DNA of 14,223 nt from a virus. Under the pieces are notes generated by a model, which worked only from the letters and a program-made list of their open reading frames with translations, was not told where the DNA came from and made no database searches. The position numbers were made by a program, and so were the translations under genes. Below, one piece after another: positions 188-13,681 of the stretch. The stretch lies in UHGV virus genome UHGV-0138819, one strand, 5' to 3'. Numbering within the stretch: position 1 is the stretch's first letter; every line of letters starts with the position of its first letter.

Positions 188-258
188 GACTCGGGGTGCC
201 CTTCTGCGTGAAGGCTGAGAAATACCCGTATCACCTGATCTGGATAATGCCAGCGTAG
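188..258 (+). repeat. attL: native 5' portion of the thiM TPP riboswitch aptamer; left copy of the 71-bp imperfect direct repeat
   Basis: 188-258 equals 13557-13627 except at 206, 207 and 232. The left copy carries the bases I recall for the canonical E. coli thi-box (CUUCUGCGUGAAGG, GUAUCACC). Homology ends abruptly after 258. Confidence 0.8.
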
Positions 259-319: not shown

Positions 320-1702
320 ATGTTGTCACTCAGAGAGACAAACAAAATGGCACACACACCGATCAATCACACCATCATCCGTAACGGGATCTACTACGTC
401 AGCTTTCGCCTGTCGGGTCATAAATATTTCCGTCGGTCGTTAGAGACAGATAGCCACAGCCACGCGCAACTCTTGATGTCATTTGCATCTCCAGCCATTC
501 CATTAGTCAAACGTGGAACCATTCACCCGGATCAGTTTGGTCAACGTCTTTCTGATTTCAGCAACCGCTTAAAGCAACAGAATGAACACTGGCTGGTTCA
601 ACAATTTCTCAGTGATGAACGGCGCAATCTTCAGCCGATAGTTGTTCAGGAATACCGGGAGACTGTTACACCTTCAGAAGATGAGGAAGAACAAACTGAA
701 GCACAGTCAAAGGATGTGTTAACACTGGCTGGCGCTTGGAATATGTACAAAAAGGAGAAAGCCCAAAACTGGACGAAGGCAATTTCACAGGCCAATGAGC
801 GCTTTATGGAAGTCATGTTCATTGTCCTCGGTGCATCAACAGACGTAACGACGATAACCAAGCAGGACATCAAGCAGGTGATGGAAGTTGTTGAAAACTT
901 ACCAAAGCGTGTTGTACAGCCTTATCGGTCGATGACGGTTCAGCAACTGATCGAGTGTGATGATGTGCCACCTGAAGATTTGGTTGGCGCTGAGTCTATC
1001 CACAAGCATTTGAAGATTTACAAATCGCTCTTCAAAACCTTCCTGACTGATAATAAAGATATTCTGGAGAAGTCTCCGACAGATGGAGTAGTCGCCGCAC
1101 CGTCAAAAGCGAGGTTTGGTGCATACAGTGCGGCAGAAATGAGAAAGTTTGTGGGGTGGGCGCTCAAGCAGCCTGATGGCTGGCAGAAATGGATCACCTT
1201 GTTGTTGGCGTATACGGGAGCCAGAAGAGGGGAGATCGCCAAGCTGGAGAAATCACAGATCAAATTTGATGAAGATAGCCAGCGGCACTATCTCCTGATA
1301 GCGGAAGGAGGGCAGGGGAAAACCGAGAATGCTACAAGGCAGGTGGCTATCCATCCCAAACTGATCGAGTGGGGTTTTCTTGATTTTGTAAACCGCCAAT
1401 GGAAAGAGAAAATCTTCTCGCCTGTGTCAGGTAAGAACATGCCAAAAATCGGCAAAGTCTTGGCTGATGTCCGTGATCAGCTTGGTATTCCGTACCTTGA
1501 TGATTATGGGCAGCGGCGATTAGTGCATAGTTTCCGGCATACCATGATTTCAACCTGTTTAGCTGGTTGGGTTGGGAACTTAGCGCACTTGCAACAGGTG
1601 GTTGGGCACGAGAAAAGCGGGTCAGGGATCACTCGGCGCTATCTTCATACGTTCCCGCTTTCCACTGTTTGTTATGTGATTGATGGCTTGGGTTGGTTGT
1701 AG
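320..1702 (+). CDS. int: Tyrosine site-specific integrase
   Basis: 460-aa ORF. C-terminal catalytic motifs are visible: TGARRGE (Arg), HSFRHT (His-x-x-Arg), VGHE, RRYLH (Tyr nucleophile). Alternative start at ATG 347 with a purine-rich AGAGAG upstream. Confidence 0.85.
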   Translation: MLSLRETNKMAHTPINHTIIRNGIYYVSFRLSGHKYFRRSLETDSHSHAQLLMSFASPAIPLVKRGTIHPDQFGQRLSDFSNRLKQQNEHWLVQQFLSDERRNLQPIVVQEYRETVTPSEDEEEQTEAQSKDVLTLAGAWNMYKKEKAQNWTKAISQANERFMEVMFIVLGASTDVTTITKQDIKQVMEVVENLPKRVVQPYRSMTVQQLIECDDVPPEDLVGAESIHKHLKIYKSLFKTFLTDNKDILEKSPTDGVVAAPSKARFGAYSAAEMRKFVGWALKQPDGWQKWITLLLAYTGARRGEIAKLEKSQIKFDEDSQRHYLLIAEGGQGKTENATRQVAIHPKLIEWGFLDFVNRQWKEKIFSPVSGKNMPKIGKVLADVRDQLGIPYLDDYGQRRLVHSFRHTMISTCLAGWVGNLAHLQQVVGHEKSGSGITRRYLHTFPLSTVCYVIDGLGWL

Positions 1703-3727: not shown

Positions 3728-4986
3728 ACTCATCTACCCCACCTCATGGATGTCCCTGCTATTTGACGATCCAGCTTACATGCTCTTGCTGAAAATATCT
3801 TACGGCTCTCTGGGCCAGGTGCCTGACGTGACAGACGATCCCTCAATAATTTCTTATCTTCTTGCTGAAATATCGCAGAGCCGACAGGCCCAGTAACGTA
3901 TTTCACCACTTCATCCCGTAGAGCATCACAGCAGGGAAAACTTGCCGCAATAGGGCATTCTACTGTTCGTTTTCTGGTCTATTTAACATAATGGTTCTTA
4001 TAAGTACTTGACTGGAATGGTCAGGTATTACTTTTCGGAACGTTGACGCGAAGCTGGGTACACAACAGCGATTTCACCAACAGAAGGAAAGCATTCAGGA
4101 GGATTCGAGGTGAGTTCTCTTGTTCAAGGATTTTGGATGAGTTTGCCTGGTCACCACACAATTTCAGGTTTCAGACCTTTGAGGCTGCCAGTGTGTCAAA
4201 CGCCATAAAAGCACTTTTTTCTGTTTACCAGCAGACACAAAGCCACTACACCGACGTTACCACAACGGGCTGAAGGTCTGCCATCACCTGGTGATATTCA
4301 CGAGCCTGACCGCCACTGTTTCGTACCATTTCCCAAAACAATGTAAACAGCCAACCCACCAATCCCTTCTACGCTCCACCAGAAGCGCTACAGTGCGTTA
4401 TCCCCCCAGATGTAAACTGACGTACCGATAATCCACGACATCCCACAGCGCGATACAGGAACCACCAGAGGACATCTGTTTTAGTTTTAATGTGTCTTTT
4501 TTATTTTTTGTAAAAAGATGGTTCAGAAAGTGGGTTGTGTTTAGCACCCATTCAATTGGCGGATTCGCCTAGGCCGCGCCATTACTGGCTTCGCTGCATG
4601 CACCACACCATAACGCCCATAGGTACAAACTTGTGATTTGTACGTTTAGTGACCACTTTAGCATGATTAACTACGGATTATAGGCTATTTGAGGTGTATT
4701 TAATCTACTTTGTTCGCAGGATAGCCAATGATAAAGATCATCCACCAAATTTTCACAGAAAACTAGTATAGGGTTGCCAATCTTCAGCCAGCGCGGAGAA
4801 TGGTCGGTATTTTCAGATGAAAGCGGGGGAGGGAGATGATCAATTCTCGGAGCGGATCAGGTGCCTGGACCGCCTCAGGTGTTGCCGTCGATTGTGCCAT
4901 TGAAGCATGACGCGGACATATCAAACCAGAAGTTTTCATCGGTACGTTGGTCGCTTGGATGACTTGGAAAATTCTCACCCGGTGAT

Positions 4987-5075
4987 ACCTGCACGATTTT
5001 CGTGTACCCACCCCCTCGATTTTCGAGCACCTACCTGCACGATTTTCGAGTAGGGGGTAGTCGATTTTCGAGCAC
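4987..5075. repeat. Iteron-like array: four CGATTTTCG-centred repeats at 22-23 bp spacing, followed by an AT-rich tract; candidate replication origin or protein-binding array
   Basis: CGATTTTCG at 4994, 5017, 5040 and 5062. ACCTGCACGATTTTCG is exact at 4987-5002 and 5033-5048. CGATTTTCGAGCAC is exact at 5017-5030 and 5062-5075. AATAATAATAAATAACAAT follows at 5076-5094. Confidence 0.55.
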
Positions 5076-5649
5076 AATAATAATAAATAACAATCTCCAT
5101 AAAAGAACTGATAAGAAAAGTACCTCCAGGTCGAGAGCACGGAATGACGGTTGGTCATTCTGTTAGTTTTAATAGTGATGCTTCTGCATCGCTCCGCTCT
5201 GCAATGGCTGGTCAGCCACTTCAGATATGTTTGTGGTAAGAAGCTCACCTTTGCTGACGTGAAACAGCCGCGCCATCTCGTGACCTTCTAACCCTCGTTA
5301 ACACATCGCTACGCTCTGTGACTCGGGTAACCCGACAGGCTACGCCAGAGAGCTACGCTCTCACTCTGTGTGGAAGCTGCGAACTTGTTCGCCATATGTG
5401 GATCGGAGCACGGCGGAGAGGACTGCTTTGCATCTGTCCGGTTCACTCCGGGGCGGCGCGGGTTGTCTAACTGACTTCCTCAGCGCCTCTCTACGGCGTT
5501 TAAATGGTGTGGGTAACACGATGGTACTGCTATAACGACGAGTCCCCGCAGAACGCGTCACAGAACGATCTAGCACTATTGACAAAGATTTTTTAAACTT
5601 GTAATGTTATGGTGATTATTATGCATTATAAAATGCTACATGATAATGA

Positions 5650-5678
5650 TTGCTATTTACAAACAAATCTGATACAAT
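5650..5678 (+). promoter_or_regulatory. Candidate sigma70 promoter for the 5824-10406 operon (TTGCTA, 17-bp spacer, TACAAT)
   Basis: -35 TTGCTA at 5650-5655 and -10 TACAAT at 5673-5678 in an AT-rich region about 145 bp upstream of the first operon ATG. Confidence 0.4.
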
Positions 5679-5823
5679 AGATTTTAGTAGGGTAATGATT
5701 TACCTACGAATCCTCGAATAATTCTGCCGTCATCACGACATTCCTTGTCAACCTCACGGCAATACAAAATGGGTTACAAATAGAACCTCCGCGAATAATT
5801 CTTTTAACAGAACGGAGAACCCA

Positions 5824-6270
5824 ATGAATAAACCAAAATCCCAACGTCTCGACCTGACCACTATGACAGGCGAGCAGATCGCTGATCTCATCCTGAACGG
5901 CAAATACACCAAATCAGCTTTGTGGGCCTTCATTAGTAGAAACGGCGGGGCAGACGCTGTACATGCTCGACTTCCTCAGATCGCCGTCTGCCTGCAAATC
6001 CTGAAGCAGGCGCGGAAGAAAGCGAAGCAGGCACGAGTGGTTAAGACGGTGCTGAAGCCTCTGAGCAATAAATATGCTGAGGGTAATTCCTTAACGCAAA
6101 TCCTGAATCCTGTGTTACAGGGCTACCGCGAGCTATATAGAGAAAAACTGAATCTGGACCTGACACCAGAACAGGTGATCTTGCTCTTGATCGCCACTGA
6201 TGGTGTGGAACGTCTGGAATCCTACGGTTACACCTGTGCGGGTGACTTCCCGACCGCAACCGCAGTCTAA
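5824..6270 (+). CDS. Hypothetical protein (148 aa), first gene of the rightward operon
   Basis: GGAGA 8 nt upstream of the ATG. No family recognised. Confidence 0.6.
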   Translation: MNKPKSQRLDLTTMTGEQIADLILNGKYTKSALWAFISRNGGADAVHARLPQIAVCLQILKQARKKAKQARVVKTVLKPLSNKYAEGNSLTQILNPVLQGYRELYREKLNLDLTPEQVILLLIATDGVERLESYGYTCAGDFPTATAV

Positions 6271-6357
6271 CAACACTGAACAAAACCTGAGCCGGTTCGC
6301 CTTTGGGCGACCACTGGCGGGAGGTCTTTTGTACCTAAAACGAGGAGGACAACTTGA

Positions 6358-6561
6358 ATGAACATCAAATTTCAACAGCACGTTTATCAGGCTCTACTAG
6401 CTGAGGCCAAAAGGCAGGACAAGCCCCTGGCACGGCTCTGTAATGAAATCTTGGAGACTGCCGCGAACATTTTCGACAACACACCAGACATCAAACCAGC
6501 ATTAGCCAGCAAGGCGACACTTTACGGAGAACAGAATGAGCAAACAGAACCGGGACAGTAA
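6358..6561 (+). CDS. Small putative ribbon-helix-helix (Arc/MetJ/CopG-like) DNA-binding protein (67 aa)
   Basis: AGGAGGA upstream of the ATG. N-terminal strand-like MNIKFQQ followed by two predicted helices (QALLAEAKRQ, PLARLCNEILETA). RHH assignment is by pattern only. Confidence 0.55.
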   Translation: MNIKFQQHVYQALLAEAKRQDKPLARLCNEILETAANIFDNTPDIKPALASKATLYGEQNEQTEPGQ

Positions 6562-7282
6562 GGATTTTGTAAAACTTGAATACAGCATTCTCGACCTTAC
6601 CGAGTACAACGGCCTGACCATTAATGGCAACATGAAAATTTTGCTATCTCTGGTTTACAGCTATGACAAAACAGGCAGAACTTATTACGAGTCTGTTGGC
6701 ATGATTGGTAAACGTTGCGGCTGCAAGCCCGAAGCCGTTCGTAATTTCAGGAACAAGCTTCGTGAAGCGGGAATGATCACTTTTGAGGAAGAGCAGGGGA
6801 GAACACACAAAATTTCTCCGGTCGAACTCGATCCATCGTTGATGGTTTTTCTTGACGATCATAATTCCACGCAGGTGAGTAATAGAAAAGTGGAAACCGA
6901 GGAGAGCGGTAAGAATGAGCAGAAACGTGATGTGGAATCTTTCGTGGTGGAACCTGCCGCGCCTGTTGCTGGAAAACCAGACGGCCTACCTGTTGTGGAT
7001 ATTCCTGTCGATGCTGATGTACCTGCCAATGATGATGCGGTGAACGCTTCTGATAGGTATACCGATGAACAATTAGGCACCAAGCTGAGGCGATGGCGCA
7101 ATTGGGGACTGGATGAAGAAGCAAAAGCGTTTTGTCTCTCTCATGGTATCAGCAGCGATGAGGACAGCATGAATCTGTTTATTCAAAATTATCATGTACC
7201 CGCACCGGAGTCAGTAGAACAACAGGTTAACGCCCCAGCAGATGAGCTGCCGCTTGATTATGATGACTCGATCCCTTTCTGA
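6536..7282 (+). CDS. Hypothetical protein (248 aa) with a putative winged-helix DNA-binding segment and acidic C-terminal region; candidate replication initiator or regulator
   Basis: GGAGA 5 nt upstream of the ATG. Overlaps the previous ORF by 26 nt. Segment YESVGMIGKRCGCKPEAVRNFRNKLREAGMI resembles wH/HTH domains. C-terminal half is D/E-rich. Confidence 0.55.
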   Translation: MSKQNRDSKDFVKLEYSILDLTEYNGLTINGNMKILLSLVYSYDKTGRTYYESVGMIGKRCGCKPEAVRNFRNKLREAGMITFEEEQGRTHKISPVELDPSLMVFLDDHNSTQVSNRKVETEESGKNEQKRDVESFVVEPAAPVAGKPDGLPVVDIPVDADVPANDDAVNASDRYTDEQLGTKLRRWRNWGLDEEAKAFCLSHGISSDEDSMNLFIQNYHVPAPESVEQQVNAPADELPLDYDDSIPF

Positions 7283-7296
7283 TACTGGAGGAATAA

Positions 7297-7818
7297 TTGT
7301 GTGATGTTGCCAACAGCCTGACGGCTGAAACCCTTACGGTGCGAAGCACTTTACCAGAGGTAAACAAATCCGGTGCTGACGCCCCTGATTTGTCCCGTTT
7401 TTACAAGGCCCGCTCTCGTGATACCTCGTTGATCGAGACTGCTAAAAAAATGCTCGTTCACGGTTACACCCCAGGCAAAACGGCGCTGCTCCTACGCTTG
7501 CCGTATGACCTGGTAAAAGGCCTTTACGATAACTCGTGGAATCCTCGCTGTCGCAAGATAAGTAATACCAGTCAGTACGCTACTAAGCGAATGGCCCGAA
7601 TGTACTACGAATCCGGCGCAATGCTGGCAAAAATCTGTGCTGACCTTCAACTGCCTCTATTCACTGTGGTAACGCTGCTCAAGCGTGAAGGAATCACTGA
7701 AAAAGAAATGGCATCTCGAATGCCTGTTAGTGATGATCCGTTGTTCATTGAGTACCGGAAGACTATTTCACGCAAGCAGGCAGCGCCCCAACGCCGATCA
7801 CCACGACTGCATTATTAA
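7297..7818 (+). CDS. Hypothetical protein (173 aa), possible tandem HTH-like segments
   Basis: TTG start 5 nt after GGAGG (7287-7291). No family recognised. Confidence 0.5.
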   Translation: MCDVANSLTAETLTVRSTLPEVNKSGADAPDLSRFYKARSRDTSLIETAKKMLVHGYTPGKTALLLRLPYDLVKGLYDNSWNPRCRKISNTSQYATKRMARMYYESGAMLAKICADLQLPLFTVVTLLKREGITEKEMASRMPVSDDPLFIEYRKTISRKQAAPQRRSPRLHY

Positions 7819-7836: not shown

Positions 7837-8265
7837 TTGACCCTATTTGAATATTTATCCTTTCTGCCGTTAGCGGTAGCTGTTCTCCAATGGCTTCGTG
7901 ACGGCCTGGACCTCTACAGGAAACATAACAATATGAATAACATTGAAGCAATCCGCGCCAGTATCCGGGAAGCAATGACCGCAGGAACAGACGAACCGGA
8001 AGATCTGAACAAATCCGCTGAAGAAGCATTGGCGGAGGCGGTGCAGAGTTACCTGTCCGCTTCGACTGCAACAGCCAGCGAGCCAGCCCCAAAAAGTGGT
8101 AAAACCATCAAGGAAAAAGGGATCGCTCTGTGCCACCAAGCCCAAGGTTATAGCGCTAATCTGCGTCCGGTAAGTCTCATGATGAAGGCAAGTCTTGATG
8201 AGCTAACACCTGAACAACGCGCCGCGCTTGAGCGTCTGGGTTACGATATCAATCAGGGGGTGTGA
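7837..8265 (+). CDS. Hypothetical protein (142 aa from TTG 7837, or 111 aa from ATG 7933)
   Basis: TTG 7837 preceded by GGGGA. In-frame ATG at 7933 preceded by AGGAAA. Its stop TGA (8263-8265) overlaps the next ATG (8265-8267). Confidence 0.5.
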   Translation: MTLFEYLSFLPLAVAVLQWLRDGLDLYRKHNNMNNIEAIRASIREAMTAGTDEPEDLNKSAEEALAEAVQSYLSASTATASEPAPKSGKTIKEKGIALCHQAQGYSANLRPVSLMMKASLDELTPEQRAALERLGYDINQGV

Positions 8266-10406
8266 TGTCTGGCACAAATAAGATTGTTACCAGCACCGTT
8301 AATGAAATCTCGTGGATCACAGACGATGCCTCATATCAAAAAGCCAAAAAGAAGATTATCTCGCTTAAGGCTGCTCATGAGAAACCAGCTAAAGCGCTTG
8401 AGAAGGCCCAGAAGCGGACCGTCCAGAGTGAAGGCAAAGCAGCACTAGCCGCAGCGAAAGCCCAGACAGCGAAGCTACGCCAGGCTGAACAATTGTCAAA
8501 ACAGCAACAGAAACAAGCTCAGATACAAGCCAAAATGGAACGGGATGCAGTCTCCCACGCTAATAAAATGACCTCATTACAGGCGCGTCAGTTATCCCAG
8601 CAGGAACAGGCCGCACGGCAGAATGCCAGACTAGCAGCGATATCTGACAAGGTGAGACAGGCGAGTCGCTCCCGTGCAATGACCTACAATCCCAACATGC
8701 CTGGAGTTCACTCCGATCCATCTCTGGTGGCACGTCAAAATGCAGCGATGAACCGTGGTCACGGCGCTGTTGCTGCTGACATCGCAGCCACCAAAAAGGC
8801 GATGGCCTTGGAGGAGAAGCGTCAGCGTGAGAAAGAGGCAGGCCTTAAGCGCGAGGTGACTTATTACAACAGTTTGCGCCGTAGCGCTCTGACTCTGGCA
8901 AACGTGAACGGCGCTGACGTTGCAACCCGGTACAAAGCCATCAGTGCAGCAAAAGAGGCACTTAAAGCCCAGAAAGAAGAGCGCTATACGGTTGAAGAGA
9001 CCCGCTTCGAAATGGCTCGTATCACCACCGAATTACGCAAGCAGGCTCGTCTGCAACAGCGTATGACCCGTGAGCAGAAAGCCGCAGGTGTTCGTGCTGG
9101 TCGTGTACGCACAGAAAGCCGTGGTGGTAGAGCTGGTCTTGCAGCTGCTGGTGTTATTGGTGGTGCGTCGTTAGTGGGTAGTATGGGCGTTTCTCGTGTC
9201 GGTCAGACCCTCCAGGGAAGCCTTGAGCGCTCTCGCGATGTGAAAAAACTCCAGCAGTACGGGATCAGCAACCTTGAGTTCGCTGCACTTCAGGATCTCT
9301 CGATGAGCCGTGTTGGTTACTCACTGAGTGCTGACAAGCTGGCTGACCTCAACAAGGACACAACCGAAAAGGCCGGGGAATTGTTAAACACCGGCTCTTT
9401 CAAACGTAACAAGAAAACTGGACAGGTGAATTTCAGCGGCGGTGGCGAGTTCGCAGATATCATCAACAATGTGCTGACCTCCACCAACGGTAACCAGAAG
9501 GTAGCACAGAAGGTGATCGGAGAACTGCAAAAGCTGGATTTTCCGACCTTCATCACTTACCTGAAACAGTTGCAGAAAACTTTCAAATGGACGGACAACC
9601 AGACCCGGCACCTGGCTGAGGCTGTGAATGATGGTTCGGTCTTCCTCGAAGTGTTCAATGATGAGGGGCAGGGACTTATCCAGCGTATGCATCAACTCTC
9701 TTCTGAAGGATGGACCCTATCTGATGCGCAGCAAGCCAACCTCGATAAACTGGCGGCGTTAGGTGCTGAGTACAACCGAGTGCAAACCAGCCTTGCAGAT
9801 CATTTCTCAGCCTCGTTTGTTGAAGGCCTGGGGCAGTACGCTGCCAATACTGAAACTCTACGTCAGAAGATGACTGGACTGATCCCAATTTCCGATGCCC
9901 TCGGCGTTGCCCTTGGTGAGCTAACCACCAACATTCTCTCCTTCTCTGGTCGAGTCGGTGAAGAACTTAAGAAAGGCGCGACATTGCCGGATGCGGTGTA
10001 TACGAGCGTGGTAGATGAATCTGCAAACGGTGCTGCCGATTGGATTAAGGAAAAGACAGGCTTTGATCCACGTAGCATCGGTCAGACGCTTAAGCAGATT
10101 TACCCGTGGCTGGATAGTTCAGCACCGAGCAATATTGGCTCAGGCACGGCGTATAACGATCCAGCGCTAGCGTTGAATGTTCCTAGCCTGAACTATCTGA
10201 CACCCCAGCAACCGACGTTTACGGTTCCGACAATTGACAGCATGACGCTGCGACAGCCGATTCCTGTCAGTGTTACCGGGCAAGCGAACATTAATCAGCA
10301 GATGGATGTGTTTGTCCATGACGATAAGATCGCAGGGCTGGTTGATACCAAGATAAGGGAGAACAACCACGCGCAGAATAACCTCATCCTTGGGATTGCA
10401 GACTAA
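8265..10406 (+). CDS. Large hypothetical protein (~713 aa): Ala/Lys/Gln-rich coiled-coil N-terminal ~300 aa, Gly-rich hydrophobic segment, unrecognised C-terminal region
   Basis: Uninterrupted 2.1 kb ORF with start overlapping the upstream stop (TGATG). Hydrophobic GLAAAGVIGGASLVGSMGV mid-protein. No Walker A, no relaxase HxH motif, no primase zinc-finger pattern seen. Confidence 0.7.
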   Translation: MSGTNKIVTSTVNEISWITDDASYQKAKKKIISLKAAHEKPAKALEKAQKRTVQSEGKAALAAAKAQTAKLRQAEQLSKQQQKQAQIQAKMERDAVSHANKMTSLQARQLSQQEQAARQNARLAAISDKVRQASRSRAMTYNPNMPGVHSDPSLVARQNAAMNRGHGAVAADIAATKKAMALEEKRQREKEAGLKREVTYYNSLRRSALTLANVNGADVATRYKAISAAKEALKAQKEERYTVEETRFEMARITTELRKQARLQQRMTREQKAAGVRAGRVRTESRGGRAGLAAAGVIGGASLVGSMGVSRVGQTLQGSLERSRDVKKLQQYGISNLEFAALQDLSMSRVGYSLSADKLADLNKDTTEKAGELLNTGSFKRNKKTGQVNFSGGGEFADIINNVLTSTNGNQKVAQKVIGELQKLDFPTFITYLKQLQKTFKWTDNQTRHLAEAVNDGSVFLEVFNDEGQGLIQRMHQLSSEGWTLSDAQQANLDKLAALGAEYNRVQTSLADHFSASFVEGLGQYAANTETLRQKMTGLIPISDALGVALGELTTNILSFSGRVGEELKKGATLPDAVYTSVVDESANGAADWIKEKTGFDPRSIGQTLKQIYPWLDSSAPSNIGSGTAYNDPALALNVPSLNYLTPQQPTFTVPTIDSMTLRQPIPVSVTGQANINQQMDVFVHDDKIAGLVDTKIRENNHAQNNLILGIAD

Positions 10407-10440
10407 AATCATCGTTCCGTCGAAAATGGCGCAGCAAATT

Positions 10441-10460
10441 GGCCCACACGAGAGAGGGCC
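10441..10460 (+). terminator. Weak terminator-like hairpin after the 714-aa gene
   Basis: GGCCC (10441-10445) pairs with GGGCC (10456-10460) around a 10-nt loop, followed by a T-rich stretch (GTTATTGTTTTTGTTGTTG). Confidence 0.25.
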
Positions 10461-10490
10461 GTTGAATTCGCCATGTTATTGTTTTTGTTG

Positions 10491-10520
10491 TTGCAAATGA
10501 TAATCATTCGTGTTAAAATA
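10491..10520 (+). promoter_or_regulatory. Fur-box-like palindrome (AATGAT-A-ATCATT) overlapping a candidate sigma70 promoter (TTGCAA, 18-bp spacer, TAAAAT)
   Basis: Perfect 6-1-6 inverted repeat at 10495-10507 inside 10493-10511, about 14/19 match to the Fur consensus GATAATGATAATCATTATC as I recall it. -35 TTGCAA 10491-10496, -10 TAAAAT 10515-10520. Confidence 0.35.
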
Positions 10521-10926
10521 ATATACAAGGTGAATTACAACAGCCAAATGTTTTCCCTTCTCCTTAGGAATCAAAGTGCGCTTTTCCCAGAGCGCCTTTT
10601 CTCATACAGCCAATATTCGCACCCTCTCACGGTAAGGTTAGGCCATTGCCGCTGGCTGTATCAGAAAAGATTTTCTCCGACCTTGGATCGGGGATTTGCC
10701 AAAGCCTTTCATCCTCGGAAGGCCGTCTTGCCAGACGAAAACTGGCATTGAGTGCGGCAGCGAAGATATGAGGTCTCCCGCTGCTGTGCTCCCTCATTCC
10801 TGAAGCGTGACCCGCCGATCATGCTTTCCAAATCTCTCCATCAGAAAATACCATCGTGAAGCTATTAGCAACGCATGTTGCTAACCCGTAAACGGGTGAA
10901 TTTCATCATCTCCGATGATCTACCAA

Positions 10927-10962
10927 CCGGGGCAGGCGTTTTCCTGCCTCCGGCTCTTTTTC
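10927..10962 (+). terminator. Terminator-like hairpin (CCGGGGCAGG / CCTGCC-T-CCGG) followed by CTCTTTTTCT
   Basis: About 10-bp GC-rich stem with one bulge, T-rich tract a few nt downstream. Confidence 0.4.
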
Positions 10963-10984
10963 TGTTGGGAATACAAATAAAAGA

Positions 10985-11010
10985 ATGCCGTCCGATGGAC
11001 GGTATTTTTT
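10985..11010. terminator. Rho-independent terminator, probably bidirectional
   Basis: Stem ATGCCGTCC / GGACGGTAT with loop GAT, then TTTTT on the plus strand. The plus-strand AAATAAAAG just upstream gives a U-rich tract on the minus strand. Confidence 0.6.
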
Positions 11011-11049
11011 CAACACAACCCGGCATATTCGCCGGATTATAAAAATTGC

Positions 11050-11412
11050 ATGGAGATACAACAAAATATGGCATTCGAACATGAAAGCAAAACCCCACAG
11101 GATGTATTGGTTTATACCGATAGCCCGATCTTTCATAAGCGCACCGTGATCTTTGATCTGGCTGCTGATGTGACTTGTGGTGATGTGATTAACCCGACCA
11201 CTGGCGCGGCATACGTTGCAGCCGATGCTGATAACTGTGCTGTAGCTCTGCAAAATCAAATCGCTGGTGATGCCCGTAGCCTGGTCATTTCAGACCGTGG
11301 CTGTGTGTTCAATCCATCTGGTCTGGTTGTAGCGGCTGCTGCAAAAGATGCTGCTTACGCTGCCCTTGTTAAGCAAGGCAACCGCATTGCTGACGCAAAC
11401 ACTGCAATCTAA
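11050..11412 (+). CDS. Putative phage head decoration-like protein (120 aa, or 114 aa from ATG 11068)
   Basis: Small Ala/Gly/Val/Asp-rich protein immediately upstream of a ~340-aa capsid-like ORF, the lambda D-E arrangement. Product call is inference from size, composition and gene order. GGAGA at 11052-11056 fits the 11068 start. Confidence 0.5.
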   Translation: MEIQQNMAFEHESKTPQDVLVYTDSPIFHKRTVIFDLAADVTCGDVINPTTGAAYVAADADNCAVALQNQIAGDARSLVISDRGCVFNPSGLVVAAAAKDAAYAALVKQGNRIADANTAI

Positions 11413-11430: not shown

Positions 11431-12447
11431 ATGAAATTAAGTGATTTTACTAACCTTTCCGGTCAGTTTGTGAAGCCAAGCGGCGAGGGGTTCCTTCTGT
11501 CCAGCCTGGGGATCTTTACCAGCCGTCCAAGTGATACGCAAATCATCGCGCTCGACACACTGGAAGATGTGCAGCGTGAAGTGACCAAATCTGTTGCCCG
11601 TTATGGTTCTGAAATGTCCGGTCTAAACTTCCCTAAAGCGGCTAACGTGACTGTTCAGGCTCCACTGCATGTCTACAGCTCAACCATCACCAGCCAGGAT
11701 TGGCAGGGGAAACGTCAGCCGGGAACAAATCGCCAGATGACCGCTGAAGATGTAGTTGCTAATCATACCCTGAAGCACTACCTGCAAACCCGCCGTGATG
11801 TTGAATATGCCATGGCGCAGAGCCTGCTTCACAATACTGTAGAGGCGACACACCTTCGTGAAGGTCCTGATCTGAACTGGCAAACCTTCTGGGGTATTAA
11901 CCAGCCGTCTGCTGTGGTGAAAACTGGCATCAGTGCCAACGTTATTACTGAGATGCAGAACGCTGTCACGCTGCTGAAGAAAAATCTGGGTGGCTGGTCT
12001 TCCAGCATCAAGCAGGTTTATCTGCTAGCGAGTCCGAGTCTTTTCACCGCCATTCAAGGCAACCCAACCGCATATCAGGCGGCTCTGTTTGGTGCTACGT
12101 CCCGTGACATCATTTTCCCTGACACTTTGGGCGCATATGATCGATACAACATCGGGCGCGTAACTGTAGTTCAGGTTGACGATCCGCTATACGGCATTGC
12201 AGATGGTGAAGGCTACATGCTGGCGACGTTCTCCAATGTTGTTGAAGGCGACCTTTCACCTTATATGACTTACCAGACTCCGGCGAGCCGTCATGCTGAC
12301 GTTGCTAATGGTCCGGTTTATCCGTCTTACCATTACGTTCTGCGTGATAAGTTCATGAATTATGAGGTGGTCAGCGAGCTATCACAAATTCAGATCCCAA
12401 TGCGTCCAGACTTCGTTTTGAAAATTACGATGGATGACGCGGCGTAA
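11431..12447 (+). CDS. Putative major capsid protein (338 aa), possibly lambda gpE-like
   Basis: AGGAG upstream of the ATG. Length and position after the small decoration-like ORF fit a major capsid protein. Family assignment not verified. Confidence 0.6.
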   Translation: MKLSDFTNLSGQFVKPSGEGFLLSSLGIFTSRPSDTQIIALDTLEDVQREVTKSVARYGSEMSGLNFPKAANVTVQAPLHVYSSTITSQDWQGKRQPGTNRQMTAEDVVANHTLKHYLQTRRDVEYAMAQSLLHNTVEATHLREGPDLNWQTFWGINQPSAVVKTGISANVITEMQNAVTLLKKNLGGWSSSIKQVYLLASPSLFTAIQGNPTAYQAALFGATSRDIIFPDTLGAYDRYNIGRVTVVQVDDPLYGIADGEGYMLATFSNVVEGDLSPYMTYQTPASRHADVANGPVYPSYHYVLRDKFMNYEVVSELSQIQIPMRPDFVLKITMDDAA

Positions 12448-13435: not shown

Positions 13436-13556
13436 CCTGTCACACATAGACCAAAAGGGCCGCTTTTACCGTTTACAAGACTTCCCGCTGGCATTACTAT
13501 CCTGATCAGGGATTAATGAGGAGCATTAATCGCAAGCTTTTGATTTTATAGTACAT

Positions 13557-13627
13557 GACTCGGGGTGCCCTTCTTTGTGAAGGCTGAGAAATACCCGTAT
13601 TACCTGATCTGGATAATGCCAGCGTAG
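13557..13627 (+). repeat. attR: element-derived riboswitch-like 5' arm plus shared core; right copy of the 71-bp direct repeat
   Basis: Differs from 188-258 at three positions (TT for GC at 13575-13576, T for C at 13601). Canonical host sequence resumes after 13627 (GGAAGTCACGG...). Confidence 0.8.
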
Positions 13628-13681
13628 GGAAGTCACGGACCACCAGGTCATTGCTTCTTCACGTTATGGCAGGAGCAAACT
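13557..13681 (+). promoter_or_regulatory. TPP (thi-box) riboswitch in the thiM 5' leader, hybrid of element-derived 5' aptamer half and host 3' half plus expression platform
   Basis: GGGGTGCCCTTCT..GTGAAGGCTGAGAAATACCCGTAT.ACCTGATCTGGATAATGCCAGCGTAGGGAAGTCACGGACCACCAGGTCATTGCTTCTTCACGTTATGGCAGGAGCAAACTATG matches the E. coli thiM riboswitch as I recall it, apart from three substitutions in the 5' half. Confidence 0.85.

Follow-up and report, generated by a model that had tools for sequence, protein, structure and literature searches.

What does the large, coiled-coil-rich protein encoded between positions 8265 and 10406 of the UHGV virus genome UHGV-0138819 do in a small element that has no other tail gene? 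The stretch of DNA analyzed here (14,223 nucleotides, hereafter the window) was 100% identical to the chromosome of Escherichia coli strains AREA_C483 and TC24 and contained a 13.37-kb island inserted between rcnR and thiM. The initial annotation had likened the composition of the protein to that of tape-measure, scaffold, or ejection proteins. According to the sequence comparisons presented below, the protein is a tape-measure protein (TMP) homologue, a new member of the family of gp134 of phage phi92. The island is probably a helper-dependent satellite of rV5/phi92-type myoviruses that would have its TMP built into tails otherwise made by the helper.

The gene is an uninterrupted open reading frame (ORF) starting at GTG 8262 or ATG 8265 and closing with the stop codon at 10404 to 10406. 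Counted from the ATG, it encodes 713 amino acids plus the stop, and the RefSeq coding sequence with the identical span (8265 to 10406) is WP_016247347.1; the span first assigned to the gene was therefore right, and its length of 714 amino acids had counted the stop codon. No other gene of the island is as large (2,142 of 13,369 bp, 16%), as noted before. The TGA of the upstream ORF (8263 to 8265) and the ATG (8265 to 8267) have the A at 8265 in common, and a GGGGG run lies ca. 6 nt 5' of the ATG. With stop and start sharing one base and the G run just upstream, the translational coupling to the upstream ORF that had been proposed is plausible.

The N-terminal 280 residues form an Ala/Gln/Lys-rich helix (19% A, 14% Q, and 13% K in residues 1 to 140), followed by a Gly-rich hydrophobic stretch at residues 283 to 312. 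Residues 290 to 330 contain 20% G plus A, L, V, and S, and Kyte-Doolittle hydropathy exceeded 1.2 (19-residue window) at residues 289 to 312 alone. An AlphaFold2 model made with 26 family members (mean pLDDT of 64) had long helices at residues 21 to 137 and 152 to 273, a disordered Gly-rich linker (280 to 318), a confident helical domain (320 to 490, pLDDT of 83 to 91), and a C-terminal helix (682 to 712). The product is hence a long, mainly alpha-helical protein with a hydrophobic, Gly-rich segment, and the helix and segment described by the initial annotation were recovered in composition, hydropathy, and model alike. Pfam and NCBIfam scans of the 713-amino-acid protein gave no matches and no catalytic domain, in agreement with the earlier remark that no catalytic motif is visible.

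The evidence for a TMP came from several directions. A family profile built from 27 members matched Phi92_gp134 in the PDB (21vq_V) over almost the whole length, with an E value of 4.7e-83, and the N-terminal 150 residues of the phiTE TMP (9cuy_W) with an E value of 2e-12. gp134 is the trimeric TMP of phi92, of which residues 631 to 656 were resolved within the baseplate by cryo-electron microscopy (PMC13450770); in the connector map of phiTE, TMP density close to the N-terminal end was seen, and the C terminus is a trimer in the hub (PMC11972413). Two chains of matches, with independent intermediates, led to the same protein, one through the relative P0145 (E = 1.4e-19 from the island protein, then 6e-71 to gp134) and the other through P0125 (E = 6.7e-55, then 5.9e-7). 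By profile, by chains, and by the cryo-electron microscopy location of gp134, the island protein is homologous to one found physically inside a phage tail, and the tape-measure-like composition noted at the outset reflects homology to myovirus TMPs. Furthermore, matches to four PHROG TMP families (E values from 8e-14 to 9e-4) were spread colinearly over separate parts of the protein.

Relatives are few. A tblastn search against phage genomes retrieved three records only (FBKp34, KP13-16, and Mulock). The Klebsiella myoviruses FBKp34 and KP13-16 (Stephanstirmvirinae) code for a 647-amino-acid homologue, in the gene order sheath, tube, two small genes, homologue, and baseplate; FBKp34 gp168 shares 31% identity with the island protein over 263 amino acids (E = 1e-37). 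In Mulock, a 43-residue stretch with 63% identity was found inside a 638-amino-acid protein encoded directly after the G/GT chaperone pair. A HMMER search of 1.84 billion representatives returned only 59 relatives, ca. 25 of them full-length (580 to 730 amino acids, 24 to 33% identity). Foldseek against predicted viral structures (BFVD) found mostly TMPs, five of them at an E value of ≤1e-3. The same AlphaFold2 model gave nothing at an E value of <1 against the PDB, as expected for a flexible, helical protein with a pLDDT of 64.

The similarity to phi92 gp134, FBKp34 gp168, and the KP13-16 protein extends to an N-terminal motif, long helices, a Gly-rich stretch, a core, and a C-terminal hub segment, all encoded here on the plus strand. 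The N-terminal TMP motif (xVxxTxNxVxxxTDxxSYxxAxKxIxxL, amino acids 4 to 45, positions 8274 to 8399) aligned to the N termini of gp134 (profile positions 3 to 66) and of the phiTE TMP (profile positions 2 to 149), with N13 nearly invariant. It is followed by the Ala/Gln/Lys/Arg-rich long helices (amino acids 21 to 273, 8325 to 9083), delimited by composition and by the two predicted helices, and by the Gly-rich hydrophobic segment (amino acids 283 to 312, 9111 to 9200), where the family consensus keeps a GxxGxxxGxxxxGxxG pattern. The helical core domain typical of phi92-type TMPs (amino acids 320 to 490, 9222 to 9734) falls in the region of 31% identity to FBKp34 gp168; no Pfam model matches it, and its invariant or nearly invariant residues are D361, K364, D365, G371, G394, E452, D456, and G482. 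Finally, the C-terminal segment (amino acids 660 to 713, 10242 to 10403) aligned to the end of gp134 that is buried in the baseplate hub, the profile alignment extending to gp134 residue 655. The terminal NNLILGIAD is common to the island protein and to the TMPs P0171 and P0176 of sister satellites, which combine a TMP_3 core with the N and C termini of the island protein. With the canonical TMP families (TMP_3, PF20155, and PhageMin_Tail, PF10145), the island protein has in common the role and the overall helical build. Two differences from the phi92-type TMPs are its greater length, by 54 to 66 amino acids (713 versus 659 and 647), and its location in a chromosomal island of 13 kb that has no genes for tube, sheath, chaperone, or baseplate.

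Hundreds of identical or nearly identical NCBI and UniRef proteins carry the name "chemotaxis protein", and the FBKp34 homologue is called a "TolA-like cell envelope integrity protein". Apart from these source names and the coiled-coil composition, nothing speaks for a host chemotaxis or cell envelope protein. Pfam and NCBIfam showed no domain of the MCP-signal, HAMP, or TolA type or of any other kind, the gene occurs in 0.7% of E. coli genomes and always within the island, and the homology is to phage TMPs, so that the chance of such a function is practically nil. Both names appear to be coiled-coil artifacts, and the TMP identity corrects the widespread misannotation as "chemotaxis protein".

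Is the position of the gene that of a TMP? A TMP gene is expected between the tail tube or chaperone genes and the baseplate genes, and the one in the island lies between replication-like and head genes. This departure is due to the satellite context and not to the protein, since the phage homologues do occupy the canonical slot. In a sister satellite (locus L012), the same slot, with the same neighbors (p124, D-like, and capsid genes), holds a 726-amino-acid protein matching Pfam TMP_3 (E = 2e-22) with N and C termini like those of the island protein. At loci L009 (11961 to 12584) and L010 (8192 to 9079), a gene for a Dit-like tail protein (PF21821, E = 3e-22) adjoins the TMP homologue, and in L009 both genes are 3' of the capsid gene. 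L009 and L010 being more distant relatives of the island, it would seem that some family members replace two components of the tail. To judge from these sequences, the position in the island is a tape-measure slot, at which the family exchanges TMP cassettes.

The island itself is bounded by 71-nt direct repeats, 96% identical and spaced 13,369 nt apart. The left attachment (att) repeat (188 to 258, plus strand) lies in a duplicated thiM thiamine pyrophosphate (TPP) riboswitch (182 to 278, Rfam) and the right one (13557 to 13627, plus strand) in the functional copy (13551 to 13647, Rfam). The duplication of the riboswitch was brought about by the integration; the left copy (53.6 bits, with an Rfam gathering threshold of 54.3) is now 5' of the integrase gene, and the right copy (73.6 bits) is still 5' of thiM. 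Logan contigs of ca. 13.4 kb were considered as evidence of excision and rejected, given that their ends are the att repeats. Matches in IMG/VR lie within contigs of 28 to 62 kb and are uninformative.

Its genes are arranged as integrase, accessory genes including one for an OB-fold or Sie-like protein, an ORF-poor stretch, a packed string of genes, a gap, and the head genes. The tyrosine integrase (320 to 1702, plus strand) matched phrog_1 (E = 6.9e-26) and is annotated as such in RefSeq. A minus-strand ORF at 2550 to 2759 encodes a secreted or lipoprotein-like product of 69 amino acids with a signal peptide; it is a conserved accessory gene, 72 to 74% identical in islands with other integration sites and integrases. 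The packed string (5824 to 7818, plus strand; PHROG and Pfam) comprises p148, p67, a DUF6945/helix-turn-helix (HTH) replication-initiator-like protein (6536 to 7282), and p173, and continues with p110/142 and then the TMP, after which comes a 640-bp gap. The DUF6945/HTH protein matched a PHROG DnaD/replication-initiator family (E = 5.6e-6) and Pfam HTH_36, and DUF6945 is annotated in sister islands. Beyond the gap, on the plus strand, are a lambda gpD-like head decoration protein (11050 to 11412; Pfam HDPD, E = 6e-4, below the curated cutoff) and a lambda gpE-like major capsid protein with the HK97 fold (11431 to 12447; phrog_29, E = 2.5e-9; Pfam Phage_cap_E, E = 2.8e-3), for which the capsid proteins of sister islands have a precomputed Phage_cap_E match. 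In every case, the decoration gene immediately precedes the capsid gene, which is also the arrangement in rV5-like phages; a small gene, p87, is 3' of the capsid gene.

PHROG and Pfam searches and ORF sizes gave no indication of a portal, terminase, or protease or of tube, sheath, baseplate, or lysis genes in the island, and a search of the gap at 10407 to 11049 detected neither a decayed Dit-like gene nor any other tail gene. The only ORFs above 270 amino acids are those of the integrase, TMP, and capsid protein, so that there is no space for the gene of a portal or of a large terminase. The absence of accompanying tail genes and the appearance of a helper-dependent island, both remarked on in the initial annotation, are thus borne out. 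As is general for phage satellites, the element is att bounded, has its own integrase, and lacks the genes for an autonomous virion.

The initial annotation had also stated that a clear profile match to a tail TMP would point to a prophage remnant. The match was found, and the conclusion attached to it was not supported. That the TMP, decoration, and capsid genes should be functionless leftovers of a decayed myovirus prophage would agree with this match, with most of the structural genes missing, and with one copy (L021) that is truncated and rearranged. However, the module p148-p67-DUF6945-p173-p110-TMP-gap-D-like-capsid-p87 was conserved, with the same compact gene set and order, in at least 20 loci and at least 8 enterobacterial genera (ca. 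14 counting protein matches), with different integrases and att sites, and an identical 13-kb residue each time is not expected from independent decay. In E. coli it occupied at least three sites with different integrases, two of them beyond thiM (a tRNA-Gly near actS, and near yagU). Other loci were in Citrobacter, Enterobacter, Kluyvera, Buttiauxella, Pseudocitrobacter, Pseudenterobacter, and Dryocola (the search of genome contigs used a single protein as query), as well as in metagenomic contigs, and protein matches were found also in Klebsiella, Cronobacter, and further genera. Among 5,426 complete E. coli genomes, 38 (0.7%) had the island, always as one chromosomal copy, and the TMP gene was always inside it.

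The TMP ORFs of the islands are intact (699 to 723 amino acids), and between E. coli variants the ratio of nonsynonymous to synonymous substitution rates (dN/dS) was 0.13 to 0.28 at a dS of 1 to 2.8; the gene is under purifying selection. Identity along the gene is mosaic, therefore indicating recombination rather than decay, and TMP and capsid types reassort independently: compared to the window, L013 has 82% identity in the TMP and 32% in the capsid protein, and L016 has 56% and 91%, respectively. Moreover, the intergenic promoter and terminator elements are conserved, and the proposed donors are virulent phages of ca. 140 kb that do not lysogenize. With purifying selection on a compact module kept across genera and integration sites, beside its own capsid genes, we consider a remnant to be extremely unlikely.

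Which phage might serve as helper? The nearest phage relatives of the TMP are phi92, FBKp34, KP13-16, and phiTE. The capsid protein is ca. 24% identical over its full length to those of Klebsiella phages of 140 to 150 kb, including the one with host KP13 (presumably KP13-16), and of Pseudomonas and Pectobacterium phages of ca. 98 kb, and 21% identical to that of the rV5-like nomine. A third indication came from the gene coupled to the TMP gene (7837 to 8265, plus strand), which encodes 142 amino acids from TTG 7837 or 110 from ATG 7933, as annotated (precomputed Pfam identifier PF26210). The protein has 95 homologues and a near-invariant 24-residue motif, KGIALCHxAQGYSANLRPVSLMMK (window positions 8104 to 8217). 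Its residues 90 to 127 are 76% identical to residues 7 to 41 of a 326-amino-acid protein of Vequintavirus nomine (phrog_2970), which is encoded after the portal gene and the gene of an XkdF-like protease (Pfam S78_2, E = 8.7e-18) and before decoration and capsid, i.e., in the position of a scaffold. Altogether, 321 phage records contained the KGIALCH motif, among them phages of Escherichia, Klebsiella, Cronobacter, and Erwinia and Vibrio cholerae phages (presumably ICP1). AlphaFold2 rendered the motif as coil (pLDDT of 61, pTM of 0.20 for the protein). Conceivably, it acts as a mimic and engages the portal or protease of the helper, so that the capsid protein of the island assembles on helper parts. 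On these alignments, the nearest phage relatives of three independent components, TMP, capsid protein, and upstream motif, are all in large (ca. 95 to 150 kb) virulent rV5/phi92/phiTE-type myoviruses, and we infer that the helper is an rV5/phi92-type phage.

Just 5' of the p110 gene lies the coding sequence of a short peptide that is hydrophobic and transmembrane-like (window positions 7837 to 7932, L003 9994 to 10194, and L013 8530 to 8730). It is in frame with p110 in the window (from TTG 7837), L015, and L020, and other islands have it as a separate, overlapping ORF that is read in a different frame.

The vicinity of the head genes and the coupling to a protein with a scaffold-type N-terminal motif might be taken as signs that the TMP homologue acts inside the head, as a scaffold or size determinant of a small capsid or as a DNA-pilot protein, all the more as coiled coils with a hydrophobic segment are also known in ejection proteins and the island has no recognizable scaffold. 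Against such a head-internal, ejection, or capsid assembly role, the homology to a tail-located protein spans the whole length, including the hub-buried C terminus and the N-terminal motif; sister islands put a canonical Pfam TMP_3 protein into the same slot; relatives pair the TMP with a Dit-like protein; and no scaffold or ejection protein family was matched. We regard this role as very unlikely, and the scaffold, size-determination factor for helper capsids, or "something new" suggested initially gives way to a homologue of experimentally located myovirus TMPs.

For the use of a TMP by a satellite there is a precedent in the PLEs of V. cholerae. In chimeric tails, PLE TMPs take the place of that of ICP1, accompanied by a chaperone and in some cases by a hub protein, as established by Western blotting, mass spectrometry, and transduction (PMC12987554), and PLE11 exploits this to block the TMP of ICP1 with Rta (PMC12987554; Mathur, Boyd et al., Nature 2026). 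Putative tmp genes were reported in other satellites, including some capsid-forming PICIs (cf-PICIs) (PMC12987554). By analogy with the PLEs, we infer that the island TMP is incorporated into helper tails, and candidate advantages would be the escape from a TMP-directed block, an altered tail length, or poisoned helper tails.

In the sequence of events that we envisage, a large virulent rV5, phiTE, or phi92 (Vequintavirinae/Stephanstirmvirinae) myovirus would infect the cell and the satellite genes would be expressed. Within the tube, the helical core would consist of the satellite TMP, its conserved C terminus docking in the baseplate hub of the helper and its conserved N terminus lying at the top of the tube or the connector. 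Helper tube and sheath would polymerize around it, giving chimeric tails that would be joined to heads built by the satellite. The variable middle of the TMP would set the length and the behavior after ejection, and the Gly-rich hydrophobic segment and core domain would act at the cell envelope after ejection, as in other TMPs.

The likeness to the PLEs (PLE11, PLE1, and PLE4) is one of strategy: a satellite of a large virulent myovirus has its own TMP and would steal the remaining tail parts. Both include variant TMP types within one family and some relatives with an additional gene of baseplate or Dit-like type; the Dit-like gene beside the TMP in L009 and L010 parallels the TMP plus baseplate hub of PLE11. 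Unlike the PLEs, which remodel the ICP1 capsid protein, the island encodes its own capsid and decoration proteins, its hosts are Enterobacteriaceae, no tail chaperone or Rta-like gene was recognized, and no shared gene content was seen, which does not include a direct comparison to PLE proteins.

The same conserved ends could also serve a different purpose. A decoy or poison TMP would engage the hub and tube of the helper and lead to a dead-end complex or one of the wrong length, the island making no use of the tails; helper virion yield would then be lowered and the neighboring cells protected. The N- and C-terminal docking regions are indeed conserved, with a middle that is mosaic and different between islands, and no chaperone or other tail gene for productive assembly was found. 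Tail assembly interference is documented in satellites and defense islands, for Tai systems (PMC11364771) and for Rta (PMC12987554). On the other hand, the island has its own capsid and decoration genes, which argues that particles are made that need working tails. The tight range of TMP lengths (699 to 723 amino acids) and the purifying selection over the whole protein, including the core domain, are likewise hard to reconcile with a decoy. The PLE satellite TMP is one that is used productively, and PADLOC found no defense matches for the TMP or the accessory genes. A decoy is therefore unlikely in our view, and so is the protective effect that would come with it.

Several points weigh against a satellite that builds its TMP into helper tails. 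The mechanism as a whole is carried over to the island by analogy. The link between the island protein and gp134 needs intermediates or a profile, and a phmmer search with the protein alone against the PDB gave noise only and did not reach gp134. The TMP gene is the last of a string that opens with replication-like genes, with no recognizable late structural operon. For the upstream protein in the role of tail assembly chaperone, there was no match to chaperone profiles, only a low-confidence AlphaFold2 model, and no similarity to the FBKp34 genes 5' of its TMP. Island TMPs (699 to 723 amino acids) differ in length from those of phi92 and FBKp34 (659 and 647) and of phiTE (811), so that no length-matched helper was identified. 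We also know of no characterized precedent for a satellite that supplies its own capsid shell and borrows the portal.

Among the satellites described so far, the cf-PICIs (Alqurainy et al. 2023) resemble the island in being integrative enterobacterial islands (12 to 19 kb) with their own HK97-fold capsid protein and helper tails. Their core consists of int, regulator, primase-replicase, terS, terL, HNH, capsid, protease/decoration, portal, adaptor, and connector, and the SatelliteFinder model for them calls for at least 9 of these 11 components and no tail gene (PMC10085698). The island has only the integrase, the capsid protein, and possibly the decoration protein, plus a tail gene, and lacks the other eight (alpA, primase, terS, terL, HNH, portal, head-tail adaptor, and connector); its nearest phage relatives, in contrast to those of cf-PICIs, are virulent myoviruses. 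Both capsid and TMP genes are found in EPIPs, small mycobacterial satellites whose particle tails differ in length from those of the helper (PMC12822802, bioRxiv 2025). Going by their description, EPIPs are set apart by being actinobacterial and of siphovirus type, with a serine integrase, a small terminase, and adaptor and stopper genes. In terms of gene content, the island seems to fit no defined satellite family. Literature on DUF6945 and on satellites of Vequintavirinae/Stephanstirmvirinae did not describe this one, the cf-PICIs with tmp in Extended Data Fig. 10 of PMC12987554 not being part of the comparison.

The noncoding regions of the island are also conserved. In the gap between TMP and decoration genes, an extended -10 sigma-70 promoter (TTGCAA-N17-TAAAAT, 10491 to 10519) was kept in 11 of 13 islands. 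Some 50 conserved nucleotides 3' of it contain TACAACAGCCA and the CU-rich, anti-Shine-Dalgarno-like UUCUCCUUA, followed by a hairpin (10578 to 10595) and U run (to 10603), with compensatory changes in the stem between islands. The segment 10491 to 10612 looks like a small RNA of ca. 80 nt with a predicted start near 10526, a candidate that recalls SviR, the small RNA of PLEs. It had no Rfam match, and in a crude RNA duplex scan against the translation initiation regions of FBKp34, nomine, and island genes it did not exceed shuffled controls. Conserved blocks (GGATTTGCCA, AACTGGCAT, and CTCATTCCT) are also found in the remainder of the gap (10612 to 11049), along with a stem of 5 bp, in which 4 of 10 sequences have compensatory GC/AU changes, and another terminator-like hairpin (10929 to 10950) ca. 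100 nt 5' of the decoration gene; this part may be a structured leader or attenuator of the head genes.

The ORF-poor region at 3970 to 5823 (ca. 1.9 to 2.1 kb) has no conserved ORF, yet its DNA identity across genera (74 to 92%) exceeds that of the TMP coding sequence. A minus-strand ORF of 119 to 123 amino acids is present in the matching region of some sister islands and absent from the window. Phage genomes contained no DNA match to the region, so that no cos or pac site in common with them came to light; the region may represent an origin, a packaging site, or a long RNA. Within it, two 21-nt direct repeats (4986 to 5006 and 5032 to 5052, 46 nt apart), TACCTGCACGATTTTCG(T/A)GTA, each with the palindrome CACGAAAATCGTG, look like iterons or operators.

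Taking these elements together, we tentatively propose, as a possibility, that the island represents an undescribed enterobacterial satellite family on rV5/phi92-type phages. Such a satellite might assemble its own shell and decoration on a portal stolen from the helper, perhaps by means of the scaffold-mimic motif, and place its own tape measure in a stolen contractile tail, with the small RNA and the 2-kb noncoding region controlling the takeover. If this is true, it would be the functional counterpart of the Vibrio PLEs in E. coli, Klebsiella, and Enterobacter, missed by current satellite finders; models of the SatelliteFinder type reject the design because tail genes are forbidden in them. 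It would also be a minimal satellite design, with capsid, decoration, and tape-measure genes and no portal or terminase.

Satellite TMPs were first demonstrated in 2026, in the Vibrio PLEs, where they explain how the tails of the helper can be blocked alongside the building of own tails. If our reading is right, this strategy extends to the Enterobacteriaceae and to virulent phages related to rV5, phi92, and phAPEC8, which are widely used in phage therapy cocktails. Being present in E. coli (ca. 0.7% of complete genomes), Klebsiella, Enterobacter, Cronobacter, and Citrobacter, the island could make such phages less effective and carry DNA from one genus to another.

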